From positions 128,001 through 192,000 of the forward strand of contig CAWHDR010000001.1 in NCBI GenBank assembly GCA_963828165.1: a stretch of 64,000 nt of DNA, in the 5' to 3' direction. This DNA is from an uncultured Chloroflexia bacterium. GTDB lineage: Bacteria > Chloroflexota > Limnocylindria > Limnocylindrales > CSP1-4. The translations under genes were made by a program, and so were the position numbers. This document shows positions 10,130-35,461 of the stretch, piece after piece (the stretch's first letter is position 1; each line of letters begins with the position of its first letter). The notes below the pieces were generated by a model. That model was not told where the DNA came from. It worked only from the letters and a program-made list of their open reading frames with translations, and searched no databases.

Positions 10130-10231
10130 TTCGGCGCGGTTCGTTCCAGGGTCTTCCGAGTGCCGGCTGAGTATGGCCGGGCAAACGACCGCTGCCAAGG
10201 GGTCGAAACCGGTCAGAAACGATCACGACGG

Positions 10232-11101
10232 TCAGGCAGGCGTGGGCGTCGCTGTCGGGGTCGGCGTCGGTGTCGGGGTCGGCGTGGGAACCGGCGTGGG
10301 TACGGGAGTCGGGCGTGGCGTCGGCGTGGGCGTCGGGCGCGGCGTCGGCGTGGGCGTCGGGCGCGGCGTCGGCGTGGGGGCCGGCGTGTTCTGCTCCCGC
10401 CACAGGAACTGTCGCAGCGTGAGGCCGCTCGCCCGGATCTTCGCAGCGCGTGTGCGGCCGACGTAGCGGTAATGCCACGGTTCGTACGTGTAGCAGGTGA
10501 CCGCGGTCTTGCCCTTGGGGTACGACATGATGAAGCCGTACTTGTGGGCATTGGCCTTCAGCCATGCACCCGCTTTGGTCGTGGCCCAGTCCGTGTAGTT
10601 CCAGGGCGCGCCACCACCGTAACTCCGGAGGTCGACGGTCGTACCGAGCTGGTGCTCGCTATGGCCGGCCCGGGCGCTCTCCTTGAGGGCGACGGCGTAG
10701 CCGTGAACGCGGACCCAGTAATCGAACGTCGACTTCTGGGTCGCATAGCTGCGATACGCCGACTGCACGGAGAACCGCGCACCAGCACGCCGCGCAGCCT
10801 CGGCCATCAGCTTGAGATCGGCGACGACGTGGCGTCGCACGAGGAAGCCGGAGTTGAGGCTCGCGTTGGAGGTCGAGCGAAGGTCGGTCGGCTTGTAGTT
10901 GCTCGACAGACGGTAGGTCTGGTCCAGGAGCGACTTGGCCCAGTCGCCGTAGAGCCGGTGTTTCGTCAGGGTGTCGGCGACCCGGCACGACGGCAACGCG
11001 GGCGCGGCCGAGACCGACACGGTGGCGGCAAACCCGGTCACCAGGACCGCGACGAGCAGCAGGGCGACGAGCCGGGGGCGTCGATCGTGGGCGGATGTCA
11101 T
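10232..11101 (-). CDS. Secreted M15B D-Ala-D-Ala carboxypeptidase with Pro/Thr tail
   Basis: SAYRSY, SARAGHSEHQLGTTVD, YEPWHYRYVG; signal peptide; (PT)n C-terminus. Confidence 0.9.
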   Translation of the reverse strand: MTSAHDRRPRLVALLLVAVLVTGFAATVSVSAAPALPSCRVADTLTKHRLYGDWAKSLLDQTYRLSSNYKPTDLRSTSNASLNSGFLVRRHVVADLKLMAEAARRAGARFSVQSAYRSYATQKSTFDYWVRVHGYAVALKESARAGHSEHQLGTTVDLRSYGGGAPWNYTDWATTKAGAWLKANAHKYGFIMSYPKGKTAVTCYTYEPWHYRYVGRTRAAKIRASGLTLRQFLWREQNTPAPTPTPRPTPTPTPRPTPTPTPRPTPVPTPVPTPTPTPTPTPTATPTPA

Positions 11102-11225: not shown

Positions 11226-11300
11226 TGGCGAGTGGCCAAGCGGTAAGGCGCCTGACTCTGGATCAGGAGATCGAAGGTTCGAATCCTTCCTCGCCAGCCA
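11226..11300 (+). tRNA. tRNA-Gln (anticodon CTG), encoded CCA
   Basis: TGGCGAG acceptor, CCTGA-CTCTGGA-TCAGG anticodon arm, GGTTCGAATCC T-arm, CCA end. Confidence 0.97.
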
Positions 11301-12348: not shown

Positions 12349-13832
12349 TCACATCCGGTGGAAGGCCGGTGCCAGCGACGGGTAGAGGCCCCGATAGATG
12401 TCGAGGGCGTCCGCGTACTGCGCCGCGTCCGGTCCCGGCTCGGCGATCGGGGTGGCCCTGACCAGTGCTGCGCCGGCTGCCTCGACGGAGCCAAACCAGC
12501 CAGCCCCGACCGCCGCGAGCAACCCCGCGCCGTACGCCGCCCCCTCGGTCGTGTGGACGGTGGCGATCTCGGCCCCCAGGACATCGGCGAGGATCTGGCG
12601 CCAGAGCGGGCTCGCCGTTCCCCCACCGGATGCGCGCACCTGCGACGGCGCCGGCATCCCCGTCGCCAGCACCTGGTCGAGGCCGTCGCGCAGCCCGAAC
12701 GCCACGCCCTCCAGCACCGACCGGGTGAGATGCCGGCGGTCGTGGCCCACGGTCAGCCCGACGAACGCGCCACGCGCGAGCGGGTCGGCATGGGGGCTCC
12801 GCTCGCCGGTCAGGTGCGGGAGGAACAGCAACCCGTCACTCCCCGCCGGAACCTCCGAGGCCGGCCCGACCAGCTCCCCGAAGTCCACGCCCGGCGCCAG
12901 CGCATCGCGAAACCAGCGCAGGCTGCCGGCGGCTGACAACATCACCGTCATCAGGTGCCACCGATCCGGCACCCCGTGGCAGAACGCCTGGACCTGGCCG
13001 CGTGGATCGCGCAGCGGGGACTCGGTCGTGGCGAAGATGACACCCGACGTCCCGAGCGAGAGGGCGACGACGCCCGGAGTGACCGCTCCGACCCCGACCG
13101 CGTTCGCCGCCTGGTCGCCGCGCCCGCCACGACCGGCGTCCCCTCTCGCAGTCCGGTCACCGCGGCCGCCTCGGCCGTCACCGACCCGGTCACCGCGGGA
13201 CCCTCGAACGTCGGCGGGAGCCACACCGGATCGATCCCGACTGCCGCCACCACCTCCGCCGACCAGTCGCGGGCGGCGAGATCGAACAGGATCGTGCCGG
13301 CGCCGTCGGCCTTGTCGAGCGCGTACTCCCCGGTGAGCCGATGCCGCACGAAGTCCTTCGGCAACAGGACATGGGCGATCCGCTCCCAGACCGCAGGCTC
13401 GTGGTCGCGGACCCAGACGAGCTTCGGCGCCGTGAATCCGGTCAGCGCGTCGTTCCCAGTGATCTCGATCAGCCGCGCCGCGCCGACCGCCTCACGGATC
13501 GCGTCGCATTCGGCGGCCGTCCGTTGGTCGTTCCACAGGATCGCCGGCCGCAGCACCTCCCCCGCCCCATCGAGGAGCACCGCCCCGTGCATCTGGCCCG
13601 TCAACCCAACGGCCGCGATGTCCGCCCCGCCGACGCCGGTCGAGGCGAGAACGGACCGAACCGCCGCGATCGTCCCGTCCCACCACAGCCGCGGGTCCTG
13701 CTCGCTCCAGAGCGGCCGCGGGCTGTCGAAACCGTACTCGGCATGGCCGATCCCGACGACGGCGCCCGCCTCGTCGAGGATGACGGCCTTCGTCGCCGTC
13801 GTCGAAACGTCGATCCCTAGGACGTTGCCCAT
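12349..13832 (-). CDS. xylB: Xylulokinase, frameshift near 13123
   Basis: GIDVSTTATKA, GLTGQMHG, ILWNDQR; C-half DQAANAVGVG and LTGERSP in another frame. Confidence 0.88.
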
Positions 13833-15222: not shown

Positions 15223-16758
15223 TCAGGATGTCGCGGCGTCGTCGCCGAGTGCCGCGGGTTCGAATCGCAGCATCGACCAGGAGACCGGGGGCAACGTGAC
15301 CGTGAGCAAGCCATCGACCGCGGTGGCCGGCGATACGCGCCGAGGCGCGACGCGCGCGGGTTCGTTAGTCGTGTTCCGCGCGTGGGGATCGTCGTCAGCC
15401 AGGACGACATGCTCGATGATGCGCATGCCGCCAAAGCCCTCCGAGGCCAGGTCCAGCGAGACCAGGTCCGTGGCGGAGCGGTTCACCATGAATGCCGAGA
15501 CACCACCGGAGGCCGCGTCGTACGTGGCGATCCCGTCCACAGCGGGCACGGGCCCGTGCGCGGCCGTGTCCACCATCGGCACGTCGAGCACCAGCGGCAC
15601 CACCGTTCCGATAGCGTGGCGGGCGGTCAGCGAGAACGGGAAGAAGGTGGTCTGGCGCCATGCCGCTCCGCCTGCCTCGGCTCGGATGGGCGAGATCGCG
15701 TTCACGAGCTGCGCGAGGCAGGCACACGTCACGCGGTCGGCGTGACGCAGGAGGGAGATGAGCACGCCACCCACGACGACGGCATCGGCGACCGAATAGT
15801 CGTCTTCGGACAGGCTCGGTGCCACCGGCCAGTCGCCGCGGGGTGGCCGCGCCTCGAAACGACGCAGGTACCAGACGTTCCACTCGTCGACCGACACCTG
15901 GATGCGCTTGGCGCTGCCGAGCGCGGCACCGACGCCATCCGCCGCCTCGACGACGGTGTCGATGTACCGGTCCAAGACGACGCCAGAGGCCAGGAAGCTG
16001 GCAAGATCACCCGCCTCGTCCTCCTCGAAATAGGCATGCAAGGAGATGTAGTCGACGAGGTCGTACGTGTGCTCGAGGACCGTCCGCTCCCACTCGATGA
16101 AGGTCGGCATCCAGCCGCCCGAGCTGCCGCAGGCCACCAGCTCGAGCCCCGGGTCAAGCATGCGCATCGCGCGCGCGGTTTCGGCCGCGACGCGCCCGTA
16201 CTCGCTCGCCGTCTTGTGCCCGATCTGCCACGGCCCATCCATCTCGTTGCCCAAACACCACATGCGGACGTCGTACGGCGCGCCGCTCCCGTTGGCGATG
16301 CGCTCGTCCGACCGCCTCGTGCCGCCGGGGAAATTCACGTACTCGAGGAGCCCGAGTGCCTCGTCCACGCCGCGCGTCCCGAGGTTGACCGCCAGCATCG
16401 GCTCCACGCCCGCCCGGGCGGCCCAGCGGGCGAACTCGTCCACACCGAACTCGTTGGTCTCCGTCGTGTGCCAGGCGAGATTCAGCCGGCGCGGTCGCGC
16501 TCCACGGGGCCCGATCCCGTCCTCCCAGCGATAGCCGGACACGAAGTTGCCGCCGGGATAGCGGACGACCGTGACGCCGAGCTCGCGGACGAGGTCAAGC
16601 ACGTCCTCGCGGAGCCCGTCGGCGTCGGCGCAGGGGTGGCCGGGCTCATAGATGCCGGTGTAGACGCACCGGCCCATGTGCTCGACGAAGGCGCCGAAGA
16701 GGCGGCGATGCACCTCGCCGATCGGTTCGCCGATCAGGATCTTGGCGCTGGCCTTCAC
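15223..16758 (-). CDS. abfA: Alpha-L-arabinofuranosidase GH51
   Basis: FVEHMGRCVYTG, RYPGGNF, WCLGNEMDG, DEWNVW. Confidence 0.95.
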   Translation of the reverse strand: MKASAKILIGEPIGEVHRRLFGAFVEHMGRCVYTGIYEPGHPCADADGLREDVLDLVRELGVTVVRYPGGNFVSGYRWEDGIGPRGARPRRLNLAWHTTETNEFGVDEFARWAARAGVEPMLAVNLGTRGVDEALGLLEYVNFPGGTRRSDERIANGSGAPYDVRMWCLGNEMDGPWQIGHKTASEYGRVAAETARAMRMLDPGLELVACGSSGGWMPTFIEWERTVLEHTYDLVDYISLHAYFEEDEAGDLASFLASGVVLDRYIDTVVEAADGVGAALGSAKRIQVSVDEWNVWYLRRFEARPPRGDWPVAPSLSEDDYSVADAVVVGGVLISLLRHADRVTCACLAQLVNAISPIRAEAGGAAWRQTTFFPFSLTARHAIGTVVPLVLDVPMVDTAAHGPVPAVDGIATYDAASGGVSAFMVNRSATDLVSLDLASEGFGGMRIIEHVVLADDDPHARNTTNEPARVAPRRVSPATAVDGLLTVTLPPVSWSMLRFEPAALGDDAATS

Positions 16759-16783
16759 GACGCGCCCCCGATCCTGTCCCAGT

Positions 16784-17677
16784 TCATTGCGCGCCCGTGC
16801 CCATCGACGCAGTGCCCTCCATGAAGTGCCGTCGCAACACCACGAACAGGAGGATGACGGGCAACGTCGCAAGCGCCGTCCCGGCCAACACGAGGTCGTA
16901 GGACACCTTGTACTGGTTCACCAGGGATGCCAGGCCCACGGCCAGCGGCATGTTCTCCGGCTTGCGGAACACGATCAACGGCCAGAGCAAGTTGTTCCAG
17001 TACTCCAGCGCGAACAGGATGAACATCGTCGCCAGGGCGGGCCTGACGTTGGGCAGCACGACCGACCAGAACATCCGGTATTCGCCTGCCCCATCGACGC
17101 GCGCCGCGTCGAGCATCTGGGTGGGCAGGCCGAGCATGTACTGGCGCATGAAGAAAAGCCCGATGGGATGTGCGGCCAACGGGACGACAGCGCCGAAGTA
17201 CGTCTCGACCAGACGCAGGTTCACGATCAGCAGGAAGAGCGGCACGATCAAGAGCTGGAAAGGCAGCATCTGGGAGGCGAGCACCCCAACGAAGATCACC
17301 GAGCGCCCTCGGAAGCGGAACCTCGCCAGCGCATAGCCGCCCATCGCGCACAGGGATACGGTCAAAGTGGCATACCCGAGCGACTGCACCACCGAGTTGA
17401 AGAACCAATGGACATACGGCGTCTGGTCGAGCAGGCGGGCGTAGTTGTCGAGCGACAGGTCCGTCGGCAACAGCGAGATGTTCGCGCCGAAGATATCGCT
17501 CTGCGGCCTCATCGAGCTCAGGAACATCCAGTACATGGGCACGACGAAGATCACCGCCAGGAGAACGAACAAGATGAGGAGCCCGAGACTCGGGCGACGT
17601 CGGCTGGGCAGCCTTCCTCGCGCTCGCGTTCCCATCAGCCTGACCAGATCGATCGGCGTGCGTCCGGGGGTGCTCAC
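16784..17677 (-). CDS. Carbohydrate ABC permease
   Basis: DAARVDGA EAA loop, WNNLLWP. Confidence 0.92.
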   Translation of the reverse strand: MSTPGRTPIDLVRLMGTRARGRLPSRRRPSLGLLILFVLLAVIFVVPMYWMFLSSMRPQSDIFGANISLLPTDLSLDNYARLLDQTPYVHWFFNSVVQSLGYATLTVSLCAMGGYALARFRFRGRSVIFVGVLASQMLPFQLLIVPLFLLIVNLRLVETYFGAVVPLAAHPIGLFFMRQYMLGLPTQMLDAARVDGAGEYRMFWSVVLPNVRPALATMFILFALEYWNNLLWPLIVFRKPENMPLAVGLASLVNQYKVSYDLVLAGTALATLPVILLFVVLRRHFMEGTASMGTGAQ

Positions 17678-20597: not shown

Positions 20598-23500
20598 CTA
20601 CTGGATCTTCACTCGGCCGCTGATCGTGTTCCCGGACGCGTGCACGGGGCCCGTGTCCGGCGGCGGCAGGGAACCGGAGTTCCCCGTGATCGTGACCGGC
20701 CCGGTCACGTGATTGCCGTTGAACTCGACGCCGGCGGTGTTGTTCTGGATCTTGGTGGGGCCCGTCACCGAGTTGCCGGCACAGGGGCCGGTCGCCGCGT
20801 GACCGCCGAACAGCACGAGTCCGCTGCCTCCGGTGAGCGTGAGTGGACCGGTCACGGTCGCGCCGCAGAAGCGAAGCACACCTGCACCGGTGGAATCGAC
20901 CGGGCCGCTGATGCTGCCGCCTGCGACGTCAAGCACGCCACCGGGCTTGACGGTCACCGGTGCGGCTACGCTGGCGCCGGAGCCGATGCGGACCACTTCG
21001 CCGGCCGAGACGACGAGCGGGACGGACCGGTTCCCAGTGATGGTGGATGTGTACGTGACGCTGAGCGTGCCTGGCGCGAACGGGCCAAAGCTGTAGTTGG
21101 CCGCGGCGAGGCTGCCGATCGAGCAATCGATCGGGTATGTCCCGCCGGTGCTGAACTGCGTCGCGGGAGTCGTGCACGAGGCGTTGCCCGTGACACCAGA
21201 AGTAGCAAGGGTCTCGCCGGCCACGAAGCCTGAAAGGTTCGCGGTCAGTGGTGGGTTCGCACTCCCGAATCGACGGGTCTGGTCGTTCCCGGTCACGGTC
21301 AGCGCGGCCTTGCCGATGCTGAAGGTCTGCGGCACGTCGGGGGCCAGGTTCCAGTTGGCGTCGCCGGTCTGCAGCGCGGCGATGGTGCATGAACCGGCAC
21401 CGGTGATGTGGACGGTCGTCCCGGCTACGGTGCAGTCACCGTCCGCGCCGAACGAGACGTCGAGACCGGAGGATGCGGTGGCGCTGACCGCGAAGTCGGC
21501 GTCGCCGTAGGTCTTGTCCGCGAGGGCATCGAAGCTGATCGTCTGGTCGGCCTTGGCGACCTGCAACGTCCGGACGACGTCGGCCGCGGCATTGAAGCTG
21601 CCGTTGCCAGCCTGCGAGGCGGTGATGGTGCAGGCGCCGGCGCCACTGATGTGGACGTTGGCCGGTGAGGTCGCCGAGTCGAGGCTGCACGGGCCCGATG
21701 TCACGCTCAGGCTGACCGGCAGGCTCGACGACGCCGTGGCGCTGATTCCGAAATCGGGGTCGCCGAACGTCGCGTTCGAGATCGCGCCGAAGGTGATGTG
21801 CTGATCGGTCTTGGGGGCTGTGTACACGAAGGTCTGCGGCGGCTTCCACAGATAGTCGCGCATGAACTTCGTCAACAACTGGTCCCAGGCATTGAAGTCG
21901 TGGCCAGCCGCGACAGACTCATACTGGAAGTGCAGGTTCGGGGACGCTGCCAGGTTGTTCAAGGTCGTTGCACTCGGCGGTGCCACCGTCGTATCCCATC
22001 GGCCGAAGCCGACGAGGATGTAGGCCTGGTTGAGGTTCGCCGTACTCGTGTTGATACTCGGGGTCCAACTGAAGACGCCGTAGTAGCCGAAACGCAACGG
22101 GTTGTTGTTGATGATGTTCACGGTCGTCGACCCGCCCGCCGACAGACCCGCGAACGCGCGATCCATCCGGTCTGTCGAGACGTTGTAGTTGTTCTGGACG
22201 AACGGGATGATCGTGCTCTCGAGGATGGTGTAGGGAGAGCCTCCCAGGTAGTTCTGGTCCGTGGTGACGATGACCGCGGGCTCCGTGAGGCCGTCCTCAA
22301 TCAGATTGTCCATGAGCACCGGGGCGTCGCCGATGTTCAACCAGTCGGAGGCATCCTGCCCTGAGCCGTGCTGGAGGTAGATCGTCTTGTACGGCTGCGC
22401 CCGATCCGGGTCATAGCCTGGCGGGGTGTAGATGCCCAGATATCGCTGCCGGGAGCCTTGGGCGGTCGCACCGGCGGCATGGGCGATGGTGAGCGGAGCG
22501 CTCACGGTCACGCCAGTGCCGGAGCCGCGGGTGGTGGTGCCGATAGCATGGCCGGCATTCAGTCCAGCGGAGAACGTGATGCCCGTGCCCGGCTGACTCT
22601 GGTCGCGCACTGCGGCCGCGGTCGCGTGAGCGAGCGTGAGCGGGGCGGTCACGGTGACGCCCGTGCCGCCGGGACCCTGGGTGCCGACGATCGCGATGGT
22701 CGCCGTCTCGAGGTTGGCGCCGGTGTCGATGGTCAGCGTGTCGCCGACGACCAGGCCGGTGACGCTCCCGACCTTGATGTTGGTCGCGCCGGCCGCCGCC
22801 GCGGCGGCCAGCGTCGTCGCCCGGCCTGCCGTGCCGACGGTCGTGATCGTCCGCGACTCGAGGTTCGCAGCGGTGTCGATGAGGATCTGCTGCCCGACGA
22901 CGAAGCCCGCGACCGACGGGACCTTCACATTCGTGTCGCCGCTGTTTGCGGCCGAGAACAGGGTGGTCACGCCGCCGGCGGCCGTGCCGACCGCGCTGAT
23001 CGAGCCGGTCTCCTGGTTGGCTGCGGTGTCAACGCTCAGGTTGCCGCCCACGGCCAGGCCGGCCACGCTCGCGAGGAACAGCTTGGTGTCACCGACCGCG
23101 CTCGGCGCGACGAGGGTGGTCGCCGCACTGCTGGTTGTCATGAACGGGACGTAGCCCCAAGACCCACCGCCGGCGCTTCCCGTGCCGGTCGGGGCATACG
23201 GCCTGACGTTCTCGATAACGCGCGCCGCAAGGGGCGCGAAGTTCTGCTTCTCGTCGTACGGGACGTTCACCTTGTTGAAGGCGCGCCGGGCGGTCCCGGT
23301 CAGGCCGTCGGGAGCGTAGATCGGCGGATTGGCGGGATCGGTCACCCACAGGTTGGTGTTGTTGTTGACGTAGAACCAGTACTGGTTGGCGCCGGCCGCC
23401 AACGGCACATCGGTGACCCAATAGCCGTCGCCGACGTTGGTCATCTGGACGTCATATCCGCCACCGCCGCGCATCAGACCGGGCCGATACTGGGACGGCT

Positions 23501-23750
23501 GGTAGATCGTCGGACTGGTGGGATTCTCCCAGTCCCGCAACAGGATGTCGGCCACGAACCGGACGCTGGTGGCGGTCGGGTTGTGGTAGACGAAGTGTCC
23601 GGTGTAGCCGGTCGGCGAAGCCGGATCCTGGATGATCGTCGGCCCTGGGGTCAGATCCACGTCCTCGGCCAGCGCCGCCGCGGGCGAGAGACCCAGAACC
23701 ATGGCTGACGCCAGTACCAAAGCCGAGATTTTTCGTGCGATTTTCACCAT
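20598..23750 (-). CDS. Large secreted CE1-like (feruloyl/acetylxylan) esterase with nested beta modules, Ig-like/MBG repeats and beta-helix tail
   Basis: Signal peptide, YTPPGYD, AFAGLSAGG nucleophile elbow, GHDFNAW, MBG-like KAALTVTGNDQTRRFG. Confidence 0.78.
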   Translation of the reverse strand: MVKIARKISALVLASAMVLGLSPAAALAEDVDLTPGPTIIQDPASPTGYTGHFVYHNPTATSVRFVADILLRDWENPTSPTIYQPSQYRPGLMRGGGGYDVQMTNVGDGYWVTDVPLAAGANQYWFYVNNNTNLWVTDPANPPIYAPDGLTGTARRAFNKVNVPYDEKQNFAPLAARVIENVRPYAPTGTGSAGGGSWGYVPFMTTSSAATTLVAPSAVGDTKLFLASVAGLAVGGNLSVDTAANQETGSISAVGTAAGGVTTLFSAANSGDTNVKVPSVAGFVVGQQILIDTAANLESRTITTVGTAGRATTLAAAAAAGATNIKVGSVTGLVVGDTLTIDTGANLETATIAIVGTQGPGGTGVTVTAPLTLAHATAAAVRDQSQPGTGITFSAGLNAGHAIGTTTRGSGTGVTVSAPLTIAHAAGATAQGSRQRYLGIYTPPGYDPDRAQPYKTIYLQHGSGQDASDWLNIGDAPVLMDNLIEDGLTEPAVIVTTDQNYLGGSPYTILESTIIPFVQNNYNVSTDRMDRAFAGLSAGGSTTVNIINNNPLRFGYYGVFSWTPSINTSTANLNQAYILVGFGRWDTTVAPPSATTLNNLAASPNLHFQYESVAAGHDFNAWDQLLTKFMRDYLWKPPQTFVYTAPKTDQHITFGAISNATFGDPDFGISATASSSLPVSLSVTSGPCSLDSATSPANVHISGAGACTITASQAGNGSFNAAADVVRTLQVAKADQTISFDALADKTYGDADFAVSATASSGLDVSFGADGDCTVAGTTVHITGAGSCTIAALQTGDANWNLAPDVPQTFSIGKAALTVTGNDQTRRFGSANPPLTANLSGFVAGETLATSGVTGNASCTTPATQFSTGGTYPIDCSIGSLAAANYSFGPFAPGTLSVTYTSTITGNRSVPLVVSAGEVVRIGSGASVAAPVTVKPGGVLDVAGGSISGPVDSTGAGVLRFCGATVTGPLTLTGGSGLVLFGGHAATGPCAGNSVTGPTKIQNNTAGVEFNGNHVTGPVTITGNSGSLPPPDTGPVHASGNTISGRVKIQ
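23263..23710. repeat. 448-bp exact direct repeat, copy 1
   Basis: Identical by eye to 25044-25491. Confidence 0.92.
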
Positions 23751-23980
23751 TCTCCAATCTTTGGCTCGGAGACCACGCGATCTCGAAGGAGCGGGATTCC
23801 GCTAGATGCGGCAGACGCTGTCCGTGAACGCCCACGAGTGCACGAGGAGGGCGCAGGCCTGCACGGTGTCCGAGCGAGCGAGGAGGTTGCTCGGCTGGTG
23901 ACTCTGAGAGACCGGTCGTCGTCCCCTTCGGCACGCCACCCGCACTGCCCGTGCCGCTAGGTGCCAGGGACCCGGTGATC

Positions 23981-24015
23981 GGGGTTGCTGGCAGAACCCC
24001 TCGGCCAGCAACCCC
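23981..24015. terminator. Stem-loop downstream of short esterase
   Basis: GGGGTTGCTGG...CCAGCAACCCC. Confidence 0.55.
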
Positions 24016-24052
24016 TTCGACTCCTGACGGATAGAGCTGATCAGACTCCCAT

Positions 24053-25534
24053 CTACAACCAGAACCCGACGTTGAAGATGATCTTCTCCGCCTTCGTGCG
24101 AAGGCCTGCTGCCTGCTCTGCAGTCAGCTTCCCTTCGCTCTCCAGCGAATCGACCTGAACGACAAGCCCGTTCAGCACGTCGATCATCTCGCTCCTCTGA
24201 TCCTTGAGGAACAACTTGTACGCCTGGTCGAGCTTGACCGTGAGGGCGTTACGGACCCCCTTGTTCAGGCTCGTGCTTGCAACGTCACTCTTGAGGATCT
24301 CGATCTTGTCGTTGATGAACACTTCCGGGTGCCACAGATAGTCCCTGGCGAACGTCGTGAACAACTGGTTCCAGGAATTGAAGTCGTGGGCACCGGCAAC
24401 GACCACGTTCTTGGCGAACGCGTTGGTCCGCGCGGCTACTTGCGTGGCGTTCGGCAGCCCGAAGTCCCATCGTCCCCCGCCCCACACGATGTAGGGCACG
24501 CCCAGGTTCGCCGCGTTGTTGTTGACGCTCACGCCGCCGCTCCACGGGCCGTAGTACCCGAACTTCGTGGCGTCGAAGTTGATGAGGTTGGACGTGACGA
24601 TCCCGCCCGCCGAGAGACCGGCAAACGCCCGATCCGTCGGATGCGTCGAGACGTTGTAGTTGCTTTCCACGAACGGCAGGACGATGTTGCGTAGGTTGGG
24701 ATACCCCTGATTGGCGGCACCGAGGTAGTTGGTGTTCGTCGTAACGACGATCGCTGGCTGGGTGAGGCCGTCCTGGAGCAGGTTGTCCATGATGACCGGT
24801 ACGCTGCCGATGTTCATCCAGTCGGACTGATCCTGGCCGCCGCCATGCTGCATCCAGATGGTCTTGTACGGCTCGGCGCGCTCGGCGTCATAGCCGGGCG
24901 GCAGGTACACGCCCAGCGTCCGTGTGGCGGTACCGATCTGGATCGGCACGTAGCTCCACGTACCCTTCGGCGAGTCGGGCCTTGGGTTCTCGATCACACG
25001 CGCCGCCAGCGGGCCGTAGTTCTGCTTCTCCGCGTCGTACGGCACGTTCACCTTGTTGAAGGCGCGCCGGGCGGTCCCGGTCAGGCCGTCGGGAGCGTAG
25101 ATCGGCGGATTGGCGGGATCGGTCACCCACAGGTTGGTGTTGTTGTTGACGTAGAACCAGTACTGGTTGGCGCCGGCCGCCAACGGCACATCGGTGACCC
25201 AATAGCCGTCGCCGACGTTGGTCATCTGGACGTCATATCCGCCACCGCCGCGCATCAGACCGGGCCGATACTGGGACGGCTGGTAGATCGTCGGACTGGT
25301 GGGATTCTCCCAGTCCCGCAACAGGATGTCGGCCACGAACCGGACGCTGGTGGCGGTCGGGTTGTGGTAGACGAAGTGTCCGGTGTAGCCGGTCGGCGAA
25401 GCCGGATCCTGGATGATCGTCGGCCCTGGGGTCAGATCCACGTCCTCGGCCAGCGCCGCCGCGGGCGAGAGACCCAGAACCATGGCTGACGAGAGTACCA
25501 AAGCCGAGATTCGTTTGAGGTTTTTCAAACCCAT
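24053..25534 (-). CDS. Secreted CE1-like esterase with C-terminal helical (FIMAH-like) domain
   Basis: Signal peptide, YLPPGYD, AFAGLSAGG, AHDFNSW; RBS AGGAGG. Confidence 0.8.
   Translation of the reverse strand: MGLKNLKRISALVLSSAMVLGLSPAAALAEDVDLTPGPTIIQDPASPTGYTGHFVYHNPTATSVRFVADILLRDWENPTSPTIYQPSQYRPGLMRGGGGYDVQMTNVGDGYWVTDVPLAAGANQYWFYVNNNTNLWVTDPANPPIYAPDGLTGTARRAFNKVNVPYDAEKQNYGPLAARVIENPRPDSPKGTWSYVPIQIGTATRTLGVYLPPGYDAERAEPYKTIWMQHGGGQDQSDWMNIGSVPVIMDNLLQDGLTQPAIVVTTNTNYLGAANQGYPNLRNIVLPFVESNYNVSTHPTDRAFAGLSAGGIVTSNLINFDATKFGYYGPWSGGVSVNNNAANLGVPYIVWGGGRWDFGLPNATQVAARTNAFAKNVVVAGAHDFNSWNQLFTTFARDYLWHPEVFINDKIEILKSDVASTSLNKGVRNALTVKLDQAYKLFLKDQRSEMIDVLNGLVVQVDSLESEGKLTAEQAAGLRTKAEKIIFNVGFWL
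25044..25491. repeat. 448-bp exact direct repeat, copy 2
   Basis: Identical by eye to 23263-23710. Confidence 0.92.
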
Positions 25535-25796
25535 CCTCCTTCTGAACAACGCGCTATCTGAGCATTCCCGGTACTCGCCGACGTCGAGTCCCGCGGGACA
25601 ACCGCGACCTTCGCTTGTACAGTTGGGCGTCGTGAACCACGCCATCTCAAGGAGAGAAGGGATCTATCGGATGCCGTCCGAACGAAGTGAACGGGGACTC
25701 CTGTGGTGACGGGAGCTGTGCAACGCGTGCAAGCGTATGCGGTCAGTGGTATGCTGTCAGTCGAATGCTGATGCTGTCAAGCCCCAACGTCTAGCT

Positions 25797-31751: not shown

Positions 31752-31820
31752 GAGTTCGCTTGATCCCTATGCGAATTCGGAAGTGCGCATGACTCTTCTG
31801 GGAGTGTTCGCCTGACACTC
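31752..31820 (+). repeat. Array of GTGCGCCTGACTCT-like motifs upstream of att copy 2
   Basis: Motif cores at 31761, 31790, 31813. Confidence 0.6.
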
Positions 31821-31889
31821 CCGGATTCAGACGGCGCGAGGCGTCGGGCTGAGTTCGAAGATCGGCTGGCGAATTCAGATTCACGTCGT

Positions 31890-31938
31890 CTGACTCTGGA
31901 TCAGGAGATCGAAGGTTCGAATCCTTCCTCGCCAGCCA
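31890..31938 (+). repeat. attR-like copy of tRNA-Gln 3' half (49 bp)
   Basis: Identical to 11252-11300. Confidence 0.95.
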
Positions 31939-32030
31939 ACACCACGACCTGTTGGGGTGTAGAGGAAAACGACCACAACGTCTTGTGGAGGAGCCGTTTT
32001 CCCCGGGCGTGGAGCAGGATCGGCGGTTCC

Positions 32031-32132
32031 TGAGAATCAGGCGCACTCGTTTTGAGCGCGAAACGGTCGTTTGTGCGCCTGACTCTTCCCCTCTTGTGCG
32101 CCTGACCCTTCCCGATAAATGACCTGACTCCG
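32031..32132. repeat. GTGCGCCTGA motif array, one inverted plus three direct
   Basis: Inverted copy 32031-32046; direct cores at 32080, 32103, 32125. Confidence 0.65.
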
Positions 32133-32429
32133 AGTTGAGATCGACGTTTCCAGGCTCCGTAACGGAGGCCTTTCGTCTCGTCCGCCAAGCCGGATCCGGG
32201 CTGTGGCGTCCACCTCGATGATCGCGGCTTCTTTACGTATCTGGCGAGGTCGGTTGGGTACCAGCAGAACCCCTCAGATCTCACTCCGCATCCTCTGGGC
32301 ACCGCGGTCTCGGCCGAGGCATCGACTCACACAACGTTGACTTCCGCAGCGTCGAGGTCGGACGGGCATGCCCGGGCGGCGCAGCGAACCGCTGGTCGCG
32401 AATAAGGTCGCCTCGGAAGTGGCCTCGAC

Positions 32430-32621
32430 CGCGTTGAGCTTGTCGCGCGTGGCGCTCCACCCGGCGAGTTCGCGTAGCCCAGCCTCGGAGGGAGGGCCCG
32501 GGTCTGCGGAGTAGGTGACGAGCGTCAATCCTGGATCGGCCGGCAGTTCCATCAGCTCGTAGCCCAGAGTCAGGTCACCGACGAGCGGATGGTGGAGGTG
32601 TTTCGTTCCCGAGCGGTGGTT
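32430..32621 (-). pseudogene. C-terminal fragment of MmyB-like (XRE) regulator
   Basis: HRSGTKHLHHPLVGDLTLGYELMELPADPGLTLVTYSA. Confidence 0.7.
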
Positions 32622-32900
32622 CGGGAGCGCGAGCGCGAGTCCCATCGCGTATGCGTCCGGAGTCAGACGGGCCGAAATAAACTCGGGGCCAACGACAACG
32701 ATGCGTTCGTAGAATGCGTTTAGCAGCTCCGCGCGGCCGTCGGAGGTGGCCATTGCCCACGTCTCGGGCAGTGCTCGCAACTTCGCGATCACCTTGTCGG
32801 CCGAAGCCACCGCATGAGTCGGCGCACGTTCCTCGGCAATGGCGAGCTCGGTCCGCAGGGTGGCCATCCTTGCCAAGTAGGTCCGGATCGTCGAGCTGAC
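32622..32900 (-). pseudogene. Possible C-terminal fragment of large serine recombinase
   Basis: Coiled coil then LPETWAMATSDGRAELLNAFYERIVV, resembling LSR C-termini; no catalytic N-terminus. Confidence 0.45.
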
Positions 32901-33380
32901 CAGCGGCCGGCTCCCGCCCTGAGGACAGGCCCTCCCCGTGCACGTCGCCAATCGCTAGTGACGGGTCGCGTACCCGAGCAGAACCGGCGAGGAGCCGCTC
33001 GCCGGTGACCCCAAGTATCGTCTGCGTCCTTCGTCGGCGATCACGTCGAGCACCGCCAGCCCGATGGCGGCGGACACCGGGTTCCCACCGGACGTGTCTT
33101 GTTACTGGGGCTGGCCTCCGCGATCACGGAGCCAGGCAGAGATCAACGCGGGCCAGCGTCGCCTCCGGCGGGCCGTGTCGAGACGTTGGGTATTCGATCG
33201 GCGAGACATCGGGCGAGCTCCTGCGAGGCCGCGCCAGTCCGCGGTCCGATCTCAATCGGTCGCGCCGGGAGGGGGATCGACGCGAAAGAAATGACGAATG
33301 AAGACAGGCCAACAGGCGAGGCACTCGGCCAGTTTGCATTGCCCGAGTACCATCGGGCCAGGGTCGGCCCAGGTCGATCG

Positions 33381-33647
33381 ATGTCACAGATCGAGACCCC
33401 GATGCAGAAACTGGTCGCCGAGATCATGGCGGCATGGCGCCGCGCCGAGCGGCTGACGGCTACGCTTCCCGCCGACAGCCTCGAGCACGAGGCCGCGCAA
33501 CGGGCCTGCAGCCGTCTCCGGGACGCGTACCAGGATCTGACGCACTCGGGCGTCGCGGCCGCTCTCACGGCGGCGGAGGCCAGGATGCTCCTTCGGGACG
33601 CAGCTAGCGACGTCGACGTCGCCCCGGACGCAGACACGGAGCCCTAG
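33381..33647 (+). CDS. Small hypothetical protein, stand-alone WRxAER module
   Basis: 15/40 ungapped identity to C-terminus of the PAS protein at 9620; start could be 33291. Confidence 0.65.
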   Translation: MSQIETPMQKLVAEIMAAWRRAERLTATLPADSLEHEAAQRACSRLRDAYQDLTHSGVAAALTAAEARMLLRDAASDVDVAPDADTEP

Positions 33648-33677
33648 ACAGGTGGGTGCGGATCACGCCCGCCGCCG

Positions 33678-33899
33678 TTTGCCGCCACCGGGACGTTCTC
33701 CTACCACTGCACGATCCACACCTACATGGTGGGCAAGGTTGTGGTCCTCGTCGCCGGGGTGACCGCTCCGCCAACGGACACGGACTTTGTGTAGGGGACG
33801 GCAAGCGCGCAGTCGAGCGGCGGCCTGTCGGTAACGCTGCTCCTCGTGGGCCTGAGCGGAGGGATCCTCGCGCTCCGCCGCGTCCGGAAAGACGCGTGA
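33678..33899 (+). pseudogene. Cupredoxin (plastocyanin-like) C-terminal remnant with membrane anchor
   Basis: Manual translation GTFSYHCTIHTYMVGKVVV..PPTDT, in-frame TAG at 33792, TM helix, RRVRK. Confidence 0.7.
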
Positions 33900-34034
33900 G
33901 CTGCCGAGATCAAGCTATCCCGATCAATCAGCGAGGCTCCGATCTGTCGATAGGGTGCAAGGTTCGGGGTGGAAACGCCGAGGTTCAAGAGTGGGCCCGA
34001 GGACCATGCTCACCTCCATCAGTTGGGGGAATCG

Positions 34035-34265
34035 ATGCTTTCATTCATGCGCTCGGTCGGCTTGACGTCCGACATGTTCTACGTCGCCTCGCTGGGCTCG
34101 ATTCTCGCGTCGCTCGCGCTCTGGTTCATGCCTCGCCGAGGAGACGACTCGGACAAGGGCAGGCCGGAACGCCTCGCGATCTTCGTGGGTCTGTGGCCGC
34201 CGACATTGTTCCTCATGGGCCATGCGCTCCGAGACGAGGAAACACGTGAGCCACGATCACAGTGA
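34035..34265 (+). CDS. Small two-TM hypothetical membrane protein
   Basis: SLGSILASLALW..ERLAIFVGLWPPTLFLMG; RBS GGGGGA. Confidence 0.7.
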   Translation: MLSFMRSVGLTSDMFYVASLGSILASLALWFMPRRGDDSDKGRPERLAIFVGLWPPTLFLMGHALRDEETREPRSQ

Positions 34266-34425
34266 GGGCATCGAGCGCCGCGCATAGGTCCGCGAAACCC
34301 AGACTCAGTGTCGTGCTCCGGAGCACCGCCACCATTATTCGCGCAGCTGGCGCAGAGGTCAGGGCGTTGAGTCAACGCGGGATGCGGCTCCCGAGGCGCG
34401 CTGCGGCCCGCATGAGCACCCGGCG

Positions 34426-35076
34426 GTGAATATCCAGCCATCGCCCACGCAGGCTACGAGAACGGATCGGCGCCGCACACCTGCTCCCGGGCCGGGCGCC
34501 CCGTCCGGACCGTCGGACGACGCCCTGATCGCCGGGCTGGCCGCGGGCCGCCTTGAGGCCTTGGACGCCCTTTACGAGCGCTACGGATCCACAGCGTACG
34601 GATTAGCGCGCCGCATCACAGCGGATGATGGCCTGGCAGCAGATGCGCTCCAGGCGGCATTCCTTGGGGTCTGGCGCGCCGCGGCTAGCCTCGCACCGGA
34701 CCGCCGGACGGCCCGAGGGTGGCTGCTCACGGTGGTCCACGATCACGCGATCGAGGCAGTTCGGCGGCGCCGGGCCGCGGGCGACCCCGCGGACAAGCTC
34801 GAGGGCGTGCGGGCGCTCGAACGACTGGTGAGCCTCGAGACCTGGGACGAGGTCCGGGTGCAACCCGGCGGAGCGACGGTGGTTGCCGCGCTCGCGCACC
34901 TGCCGAGCGACCAGCGTCGATCGCTGGAGATGGCCTACTTCGACGGCCTGTCGGAGTCCGAGATCGCCACCCGTACGGGGGTGCCCGTGCGCACCGTGCG
35001 GAGCCGGCTCCGCCTGGCCCTCATGGGGCTGCGCGGCGAGCTCGAGCGGGGCTGCACGACTACGGCCAGTCGCTGA
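34426..35076 (+). CDS. ECF sigma factor (SigK-like)
   Basis: ALDALYERY, WLLTVVH, LEMAYFDGLSESEIA..TVRSRLRLAL. Confidence 0.85.
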   Translation: MNIQPSPTQATRTDRRRTPAPGPGAPSGPSDDALIAGLAAGRLEALDALYERYGSTAYGLARRITADDGLAADALQAAFLGVWRAAASLAPDRRTARGWLLTVVHDHAIEAVRRRRAAGDPADKLEGVRALERLVSLETWDEVRVQPGGATVVAALAHLPSDQRRSLEMAYFDGLSESEIATRTGVPVRTVRSRLRLALMGLRGELERGCTTTASR

Positions 35077-35275
35077 CGCCGACGAAGGGAGATCACCGAA
35101 CCCGGCGTCGCGGGTCCACGCTGTCGAGCTGGGACGACCGGCCAACGACGGCAGAACTGTCGGGCCGACCCGAATGGTCAGATTGTGATCGCGACCCTCG
35201 ATCGGCACGACGTAGGTTGCTAACCCGCGCCCAACACCTGTCGGGCGCGCCAGTCAAAACGGCCGCTGCTAGCAA

Positions 35276-35342
35276 TGGCGCCTGACTCTTTACAGGATCA
35301 CGATGTGCGTCTAACTAGTGCCGGGATGTGCGCTTGACTCAT
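35276..35342 (+). repeat. Array of GTGCGCCTGACTCT-like motifs upstream of att copy 3
   Basis: Motif cores at 35283, 35312, 35335. Confidence 0.6.
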
Positions 35343-35413
35343 TCCAAGAAATCGGACAGAGATCGCTGTCCTGCACGCTCACGTGACCGCTCGCGAGCCC
35401 TGAATCCGGCGTT

Positions 35414-35461
35414 TGACTCTGGATCAGGAGATCGAAGGTTCGAATCCTTCCTCGCCAGCCA
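35414..35461 (+). repeat. attR-like copy of tRNA-Gln 3' half (48 bp)
   Basis: Identical to 11253-11300. Confidence 0.95.

Follow-up and report, generated by a model that had tools for sequence, protein, structure and literature searches.

Arrays of a short motif that resembles one half-site of a tRNA flank the attachment (att) copies of two genomic islands stacked behind a tRNA-Gln(CTG) gene in an uncultured Chloroflexia bacterium of the order Limnocylindrales. The stretch analysed, hereafter the window, comprises 64,000 nucleotides (assembly GCA_963828165.1, contig CAWHDR010000001.1, positions 128,001 to 192,000). These arrays are a real, conserved att architecture, and sequence comparison argues that they are probably accessory sites bound by the integrase of the elements. 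The window islands themselves are orphaned ends, without the recombinase. Three aspects are new, namely, the pairing of core-like arm arrays with an integrase devoid of an arm-binding domain, the embedding of sites in the integrase reading frame, and a distinct class of integrase-less islands carrying only cargo.

Attachment copies and motif arrays in the window

The window has a G+C content of 70% and belongs to an assembly of 3.31 Mb in 6 contigs, which is 88% complete. ARAGORN found in it no tRNA other than tRNA-Gln(CTG), the anticodon stem-loop of which reads GCGCCTGA-CTCTGGA-TCAGGAGAT. The 3' part of this gene, which starts with the 5' strand of the anticodon stem and runs through to the CCA end, is directly repeated (11252-11300 within the tRNA, 31890-31938 and 35414-35461), and the repeats bound the islands, with the intact tRNA at one end. 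Identity among the copies begins at the anticodon loop or slightly to its left, the pattern that would be left by strand exchange within the loop, which the inverted stem arms CCTGA and TCAGG flank. The second copy is part of a pseudo-tRNA that matches positions 1-71 of the Rfam tRNA model with 32.6 bits (gathering score 29) and is not called by ARAGORN.

Sites resembling GTGCGCCTGACTCT flank the att copies on both sides at fixed offsets. Relative to CTCTGG, the 14-mers at the right end of island 1 lie at -136/-107/-84, and those of island 2 at -137/-108/-85; the spacing between sites is 29 and 23 bp in both ends, and the last site is 88 and 89 bp from CTCTGG. Every site listed in an earlier, sequence-only reading was recovered in place, its 'core' positions being the start of the 14-mer plus 7. 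Its assertion that the same 29/23 spacing precedes both att copies despite unrelated spacers is confirmed by alignment, since the right ends of the two islands can be aligned in register with no more than 1-2 gaps while their spacers have diverged. At the left end of island 2, a conserved block separates an inverted site from the first direct one. The motif was looked for at the left end of island 1, downstream of the tRNA, and not found, so that only the right arm of this island is kept.

At up to two mismatches, the 14-mer has 23 matches on both strands of the whole assembly, of which 8 belong to the tRNA and the att flanks, and at up to one mismatch all four assembly-wide matches are at att flanks. 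A looser 10-mer common to all variants (C[GA]CCTGA[CT]TC, one mismatch allowed) has a background of 0.11 per kb per strand across the genome. Only two same-strand clusters of three such 10-mers within 80 bp occur in that genome, one of them at 32076-32121; the other (G000:C1:356992-357073; G, C and L numbers are our handles for genomes, contigs and loci) lies outside the window.

Conservation of the architecture in related genomes

The window's own genome was compared with 200 others of the same bacterial family. This tRNA sequence is present in 127 of the 201, many of which carry its 3' part in 2-8 copies (the unpublished genomes G082 and G194 are counted here). Arrays were compared in about 20 genomes for 76 distinct att copies, comprising 39 full tRNAs and 37 element-borne fragments. 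Upstream of these copies, the 10-mer recurs at -135/-136 (12 matches), -106 to -108 (11) and -83 to -85 (24), and altogether 54 matches fall within the interval from -137 to -83, for which the background rate of the genome predicts about 0.5. At least one upstream site accompanies 28 of the 37 fragments, and at least two accompany 18.

Downstream layouts were scored on the 69 att copies followed by sufficient DNA. The type I layout (17/69) has direct sites at +145 to +148, +169 to +172 and +196 to +212, often with another at +218 to +229. The type II layout (9/69, including the second copy of the window) starts with an inverted site at +145 to +149, followed by direct sites at +187 to +191 and +210 to +214 and, in some copies, at +234 and +257. 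A partial layout was seen in 8 of the 69. The integrase-less class, in which the first downstream site is inverted, is represented in at least 8 genomes. The proposal of the sequence-only reading that a family of tRNA-Gln-targeting elements shares this geometry is therefore upheld, as many genomes of this bacterial family keep the positions to 1-2 bp.

In comparisons across genera, conservation is confined to the ends of the islands, which share 73-91% identity over about 190 bp at the right and 230-350 bp at the left. Type II left ends in particular share 73-88% identity, with unrelated cargo between the conserved ends (heliorhodopsin, ABC transporters, two-component systems and sugar genes). 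In one type II island (L269, G087:C2), the heliorhodopsin gene is the first cargo gene, at 16308-17063.

Several variants were noticed among the att copies. At L042 (G199:C1, ~730512) and L048 (G054:C16, ~82771), the outer copy is a full-length tRNA-Gln and not a fragment, and the upstream sites of L042 are displaced by 12 bp. In 11 att fragments, CTCTGG is preceded at about 19-20 bp by an additional CCTGA(A/T)TC-like word (region 35397-35411 for the third copy of the window); this word sits within the decayed tRNA 5' half and may be a displaced element-side core site.

A scan of all species genomes with a degenerate two-site pattern returned at least 120 loci, mostly in unrelated phyla, the only relatives among the matches listed being G081 and G075; this pattern was too loose to serve as a family finder and was dropped. 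No att-to-att joint was found in contigs of public runs, the best of which held at most 0.17 of the sampled words, in short contigs. The literature search retrieved no account of the family, nor of arm arrays resembling the core at tRNA-Gln; as most subscription journals were outside its scope, this is weak evidence for their absence from print.

The integrase of type I elements

In type I elements, an intact tyrosine integrase gene begins right at the downstream sites and codes for a protein of 317-361 residues (5 proteins). The ribosome-binding site and the ATG or GTG start codon are followed by the sites, at about codons 3-35, and then by the core-binding domain. Pfam recognised in these five intact integrases only a SAM-like core-binding domain and the catalytic domain PF00589, and no N-terminal arm-binding domain. 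The catalytic residues R166, K192, H255, R258, H281 and Y290 are invariant in their alignment, and the closest solved relatives by sequence match are XerA and XerD. In an AlphaFold2 model, the first helix starts at residue 31; residues 1-29 are disordered, with a predicted local distance difference test score (pLDDT) of 31-35. The features of a simple (Xer-related) tyrosine recombinase are thus found in the integrases of relatives and not in a protein of the window.

A profile search detected this integrase family in 18 of the 201 genomes (G082 included). Of 34 listed matches, 26 were examined and 8 dropped for being N-terminally truncated, lacking a locus or coming from G082. Sites are present at the 5' end of 18 of the 19 integrase genes of the main group, which bears out the expectation that one recombinase class, here a two-domain tyrosine integrase, co-occurs with the motif. 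The tRNA-Gln core lies 136-166 bp upstream in 15 of the 17 genes with at least 239 bp of upstream sequence; in one of the other two, a transposase gene has inserted into the core and interrupts it, and the last one shows neither feature. At L278 (G187:C81), a transposase-like gene lies inside the att core of a type I element, leaving of the tRNA copy only its last 14 bases. Apart from the integrase, the 24 open reading frames (ORFs) of type I elements code for ordinary cargo, and Pfam found no phage, replication or transfer genes among them.

A paralogous tyrosine recombinase, scoring 280-300 bits against the profile, was noticed in five genomes near the tRNA-side integrase, at distances ranging from about 60 bp to 5 kb and in the opposite orientation. 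None of the seven genes of this group has the sites or a tRNA-Gln core. Some copies contain an internal stop, and the gene is absent from the G199 element.

Resemblance of the sites to the tRNA and their flavours

The consensus of 158 sites is G-K-G-C-R-CCTGA-Y-TC-T, and the tRNA reads GG-CGCCTGACTC-T at the same place. The segment matched consists of the 5' stem arm and the first bases of the loop, the arm consensus and the half-site having 13 bases in common; the 3' half-site contains CCTGA too, on the other strand. The sites stop after CTCT without continuing into tRNA sequence. A second tRNA-Gln allele of the family, GCACCTGACTC, resembles the GGGCA variant described below. Together with the consensus, this allele substantiates the earlier observation that the motif matches the tRNA's own sequence at the crossover edge, here identified as a half-site. 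The half-site that the element itself brings beside the loop is degenerate in most fragments, e.g. GGCGTTTGA or CTACAGA, and is preceded by a decayed tRNA 5' half.

According to the five bases before CCTGA, the sites fall into the flavours GGGCA, GGTCA, GTGCG/TAGCG, GTTCG and GTTCA. Within the integrase gene, they encode xPDS in four flavours and GHLT, in another frame, in the GGTCA flavour. This difference in frame, together with the occurrence of the motif in non-coding right ends, indicates that the sites are selected as DNA. The same two facts rule out the N-terminal xPDS repeats, taken as a peptide feature, as the primary cause.

Four flavours (GGGCA, GGTCA, GTGCG/TAGCG and GTTCG) follow integrase clades without mixing in a tree from which the 45 N-terminal residues were left out; this holds for all 15 of its rows with sites. 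Furthermore, the left and right arms are of the same flavour in 7 of the 9 islands bounded by two att copies. The match between flavour and clade fits recognition of the sites by each element's own enzyme.

Other integrases at tRNA genes

Prophages inserted at the same tRNA-Gln code for integrases of 375-396 residues with about 70 extra residues ahead of the core-binding domain; these have no Pfam match, and we take them from their sequence pattern to be an arm-binding domain. The arm repeats of these prophages (GGTGGCGGTA and GTGGCTGT types) show no resemblance to the tRNA. As unrelated repeats thus serve at the same tRNA, mimicry is tied to the two-domain integrase family and not to the target. 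Other elements were noticed at tRNA-Gln, namely, L305/L307 (IMG/VR record, G209), L306, L183/L185 (G023) and L040 (G143), one of them a prophage of about 37 kb; their arm repeats, at both ends, are GGTGGCGGTA, GTGGCTGT, GGTGGCTGCC and GTACCAC.

With regard to more distant relatives, a profile search of all species genomes kept 80 loci, of which four are at least 48% identical and the rest are generic Xer-like proteins (27-42%). ARAGORN was run on 60 of these 80 loci, and the five with a tRNA directly upstream were checked for tRNA-like words. In one of them (L206), from a metagenome-assembled genome of Dehalococcoidia, a 34% identical integrase lies behind a tRNA-Lys(TTT), the anticodon stem of which also contains CCTGA; the tRNA 10-mer GAGCACCTGA recurs 67 bp downstream, just before the integrase start, a result reached by 2 of 500 shuffles.

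Proposed mechanism and alternative explanations

Small integrative islands would use the anticodon loop of tRNA-Gln(CTG) as their insertion point and accumulate as a tandem array behind the tRNA, the cognate enzyme being a simple Xer-like tyrosine integrase without an arm-binding domain, intact only in relatives. Extra integrase subunits would bind the arm sites, three at -135, -106 and -83 on one side and another three or four between +146 and +230 on the opposite side, through the domains that read the core, and an intasome would thereby be built without a dedicated arm-binding domain. The degenerate core half-site on the element side is consistent with compensation by the arm sites. In type I elements, since the first ~35 codons of the integrase gene contain the downstream sites, occupancy of these sites should limit expression of the integrase itself, and would thus act as a throttle. 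That the arrays are integrase-binding sites is the part in which we have the most confidence; for the more specific proposal that the same integrase domains read both core and arms, the sequence evidence leaves the chances about even. Host Xer proteins were considered as the enzyme; nothing speaks for them.

The alternative that fares best is that a separate protein binds the sites, either an excisionase-like directionality factor or a host DNA-bending protein shaping the att region. Many att systems employ such factors, and the conserved non-motif block of type II left ends, between the inverted and the first direct site, is a possible site for a second protein. We nevertheless regard this as unlikely, since Pfam scans of 24 ORFs in type I elements showed no conserved second gene, only the integrase and unrelated cargo. 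Moreover, a host factor would explain neither the four element-specific, clade-following flavours nor why the sites look like the core half-site, which the integrase must read anyway.

The overlap of type I downstream sites with the start of the integrase gene would suit sites that are operators only, through which the integrase, or read-through from the tRNA promoter, controls expression of the integrase gene, with no role in recombination. Negative autoregulation through attL sites is described for IntS of KplE1 and predicted for 61.5% of tRNA-associated integrase genes (PMC2951348). Such a restricted role is nonetheless improbable, as the fixed three-site array is also present at the far, non-coding island end, kilobases from any integrase gene, and the motif also occurs in type II islands, which have no integrase gene to regulate. 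Least credible of all is that the sites are inert scars of partial tRNA duplications by successive integrations, or chance low-complexity repeats: the degenerate tRNA 5' half of the att copies does show that old tRNA-derived sequence persists at element ends, and the motif is at background in the window at three mismatches, but the site positions are fixed to 1-2 bp across genera while spacers diverge, the ends are conserved around unrelated cargo, the sites end after CTCT, and the ~54 upstream matches far exceed the ~0.5 expected.

A number of observations weigh against integrase-bound accessory sites and have to be set beside this evidence. With up to three mismatches, the 14-mer occurs 12 times in the window against 10.2 expected, a count reached by 31 of 100 shuffles; at this threshold, the motif is at background, and its concentration at the tRNA and att flanks holds for the two stricter thresholds. 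No upstream site accompanies 9 of the 37 element-borne fragments, and no downstream sites were found in 35 of the 69 att copies scored. The match between flavour and clade would be expected from linkage alone, as the sites are inside or beside the integrase gene. Flavour is independent of the host tRNA allele, CGCC sites being found beside CACC tRNAs and vice versa, and both in the flank and at the base preceding CCTGA the GGGCA, GTTCA and GGTCA flavours depart from the local tRNA; these mismatches imply that the copy is not exact. Among the five distant relatives at other tRNAs (30-35% identity), a tRNA word is repeated downstream in one, and no tRNA-like repeat was found downstream in the other four. 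The AlphaFold2 model was built on an alignment of five sequences and has a mean pLDDT of 67.7. Lastly, the G199 element has, downstream of its integrase gene, an 86-residue ORF with no family match, which would suit a small accessory protein as the binder.

A broader scheme extends the accessory-site reading to the whole locus. The tRNA-Gln gene might be a platform for gene capture, where type II cargo modules, each with a full and conserved array of arm sites and half a tRNA at which to recombine, are inserted, stacked and excised in trans by the integrases of type I sister elements of matching flavour, which lack an arm-binding domain, one DNA-binding surface reading target, core and arms. 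G150, for instance, contains three type II islands and one integrase of matching flavour. We put this scheme forward tentatively, as something the sequences allow and that is rather less likely to be true than false.

Islands and cargo

The coordinates of the features are compiled in Table 1. Island 1 carries genes for xylose and arabinose use, coding for an epimerase, a split FGGY kinase, an XylA-like protein, an arabinofuranosidase and ABC permeases, together with two esterases and LacI, AraA, AraB-like and AraD-like genes. Its right arm is of a GTTCG-related kind, with homologous right ends at L037 (95%), L046 (87%), L041 and L182, and in G054 a truncated integrase of the type I family is followed, after about 20 kb, by a similar right end. 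The AraA gene is present in 3 of 10 other genomes of the same genus, as expected for accessory DNA. The FGGY sugar kinase (12349-13832, minus strand) is divided into overlapping ORFs for its N-terminal (12951-13832) and C-terminal (12349-13224) domains, which suggests a frameshift or a sequencing error. Adjoining esterase-domain genes (20598-25645, minus strand) share a 300-nt stretch of 99% identity (23244-23543 versus 25025-25324) and are 73-81% identical elsewhere, a hint of recent gene conversion. Immediately upstream of the tRNA, a G+C-rich repeat with a period of 6/12/18 nt lies within an ORF (10221-10390).

Island 2 has both arms complete and only cargo between them, without integrase, replication or transfer genes; apart from the two genes listed in Table 1, its ORFs have no family match in Pfam. 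It is a full type II element, a member of the cargo-only, integrase-less class with conserved ends. The type II islands L171, L269, L270, L271 and L272 likewise have both arms and cargo only, and no recombinase was found in any type II island examined. Island 2 is 93-96% identical, three indels apart, to the first island of G081, a genome of the same genus in which that island is next to the tRNA. Its right end has homologues of 83-91% identity at L171, L172, L173, L181 and L029.

With regard to a recombinase, Pfam found no such domain in the 22 ORFs of the island region, and tblastn with three integrases gave no match below E 0.05 to an integrase remnant in the window. The profile search detected no integrase of the type I family in the assembly, given its 88% completeness, the three PF00589 matches being Xer-like genes elsewhere.

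Table 1. Features of the tRNA-Gln locus (positions in the window, except for the last row, which gives positions in other genomes).
Feature	Position	Strand	Basis or remark
Intact tRNA-Gln(CTG)	11226-11300	+	ARAGORN and sequence; attL-side copy of the target
Island 1	11301-31889	.	20.6 kb; Pfam
Right-end (P-arm) array, island 1	31754-31819	+	14-mer starts 31754 (degenerate), 31783, 31806
Element-borne pseudo-tRNA	31867-31935	+	degenerate 5' half, then exact 3' half
att copy 2	31890-31938	+	identity block, anticodon stem to CCA end; repeat search
Island 2	31939-35413	.	bounded by att copies 2 and 3
Left end (P' arm, type II), island 2	31939-32226	+	alignment of 9 type II left ends
Inverted site, left end of island 2	32033-32046	minus	
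Direct sites, left end of island 2	32073-32086, 32096-32109, 32118-32131 (weak)	+	
Cargo region, island 2	32227-35267	.	Pfam
MmyB-like regulator fragment	32274-32951	minus	Pfam
ECF sigma factor	34426-35076		Pfam
Right-end (P-arm) array, island 2	35276-35341	+	14-mer starts 35276, 35305 (degenerate), 35328
att copy 3	35414-35461	+	outer boundary of the array; repeat search
Paralogous recombinase genes	G150:C55:11543-12463; G186:C94:15251-16156; G055:C40:37685-38629; G035:C116:40370-41314; G170:C6:377849-378757		

Implications

The fixed offsets are of use in annotation, as they allow such islands to be delimited simply, even after loss of the integrase gene. If the proposed binding is true, the system would be compact, consisting of one protein of about 320 residues, a tRNA target of 75 nt and arms of about 400 bp in all, and would provide a model for accessory subunits that set direction without a second DNA-binding domain. 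It would also explain how genes for sugar use, regulators, transporters and rhodopsin come to be shuffled among soil bacteria that have been little studied.

Comparison with known systems

The att regions described here share with lambda-type attP a tRNA-derived core, exchange in the anticodon loop, arrays of short repeats on both sides at fixed distances, and an adjoining integrase gene. They differ in that the integrase of the tRNA-Gln islands has no arm-binding domain, and in that the repeats on both sides are copies of the core half-site; in lambda-type systems, the arm sites differ in sequence from the core. The prophages inserted at the same tRNA-Gln follow the classical lambda-type pattern.

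As in integrases of the Brujita type, those of the tRNA-Gln islands have only core-binding and catalytic domains and are borne by the element, their closest solved relatives being XerA and XerD. The att sites of Brujita presumably have no arms, whereas the tRNA-Gln islands pair a simple integrase with elaborate arm arrays. The Brujita integrase is a simple tyrosine recombinase that mediates phage integration; simple recombinases were counted in 27 phages versus 410 with an arm-binding domain, and in 12 versus 211 conjugative elements, and gain of this domain is argued to be key to mobility (PMC8138268). If integrase binding to the arms is true, the tRNA-Gln islands would represent, beside the gain of an arm-binding domain put forward in this large survey (PMC8138268), a second route to a regulated intasome, in which the core half-site is multiplied in the arms and a two-domain enzyme reads everything.

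An attL that overlaps the integrase gene region is common (PMC2951348). In KplE1, as in other tRNA-integrase pairs of this kind, the intS gene is likewise directly downstream of a tRNA in the same orientation, with attL over its expression signals, from which negative autoregulation is predicted; attL covers the promoter there (PMC2951348), whereas the sites of type I elements are inside the first ~35 codons. By analogy with IntS, their location in the first codons of the integrase suggests self-limitation.

The ssrA islands of Dehalococcoides, with the ssrA repeat found 11 times in strain VS, resemble the present ones in having many direct repeats of the 3' end of the target downstream, conserved flanks, and cargo islands mostly without an integrase (PMC2764846). 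They differ with respect to the target, which is tRNA-Gln here, and to the integrase-less class with its own end architecture, in which the first downstream site is inverted. The cis-mobilizable elements of streptococci can be grouped with these tandem, integrase-poor islands as a further likeness.

Other comparisons are offered by Flp, with the third repeat of FRT, and IntI1, with DR1 and DR2 of attI1. The sequence-only reading had described an att architecture that it did not recognise; the arrangement is indeed unusual, yet it has a precedent in simple tyrosine recombinases whose accessory sites carry the core motif, as TnpI does at the internal resolution site of Tn4430 (PMC2847244). TnpI too is a two-domain recombinase acting on inverted core motifs with adjoining direct copies, and the extra subunits bound to these accessory copies set the architecture and direction of the reaction (PMC2847244). 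Whereas TnpI resolves cointegrates with two accessory sites on one side (PMC2847244), the tRNA-Gln islands integrate into a tRNA gene and have three plus three to four putative sites, at 80-230 bp from the core. The closest analogue would be not the lambda arms but TnpI with DR1-DR2, used here for integration, a likeness that goes with the evenly balanced proposal that the same domains read core and arms.

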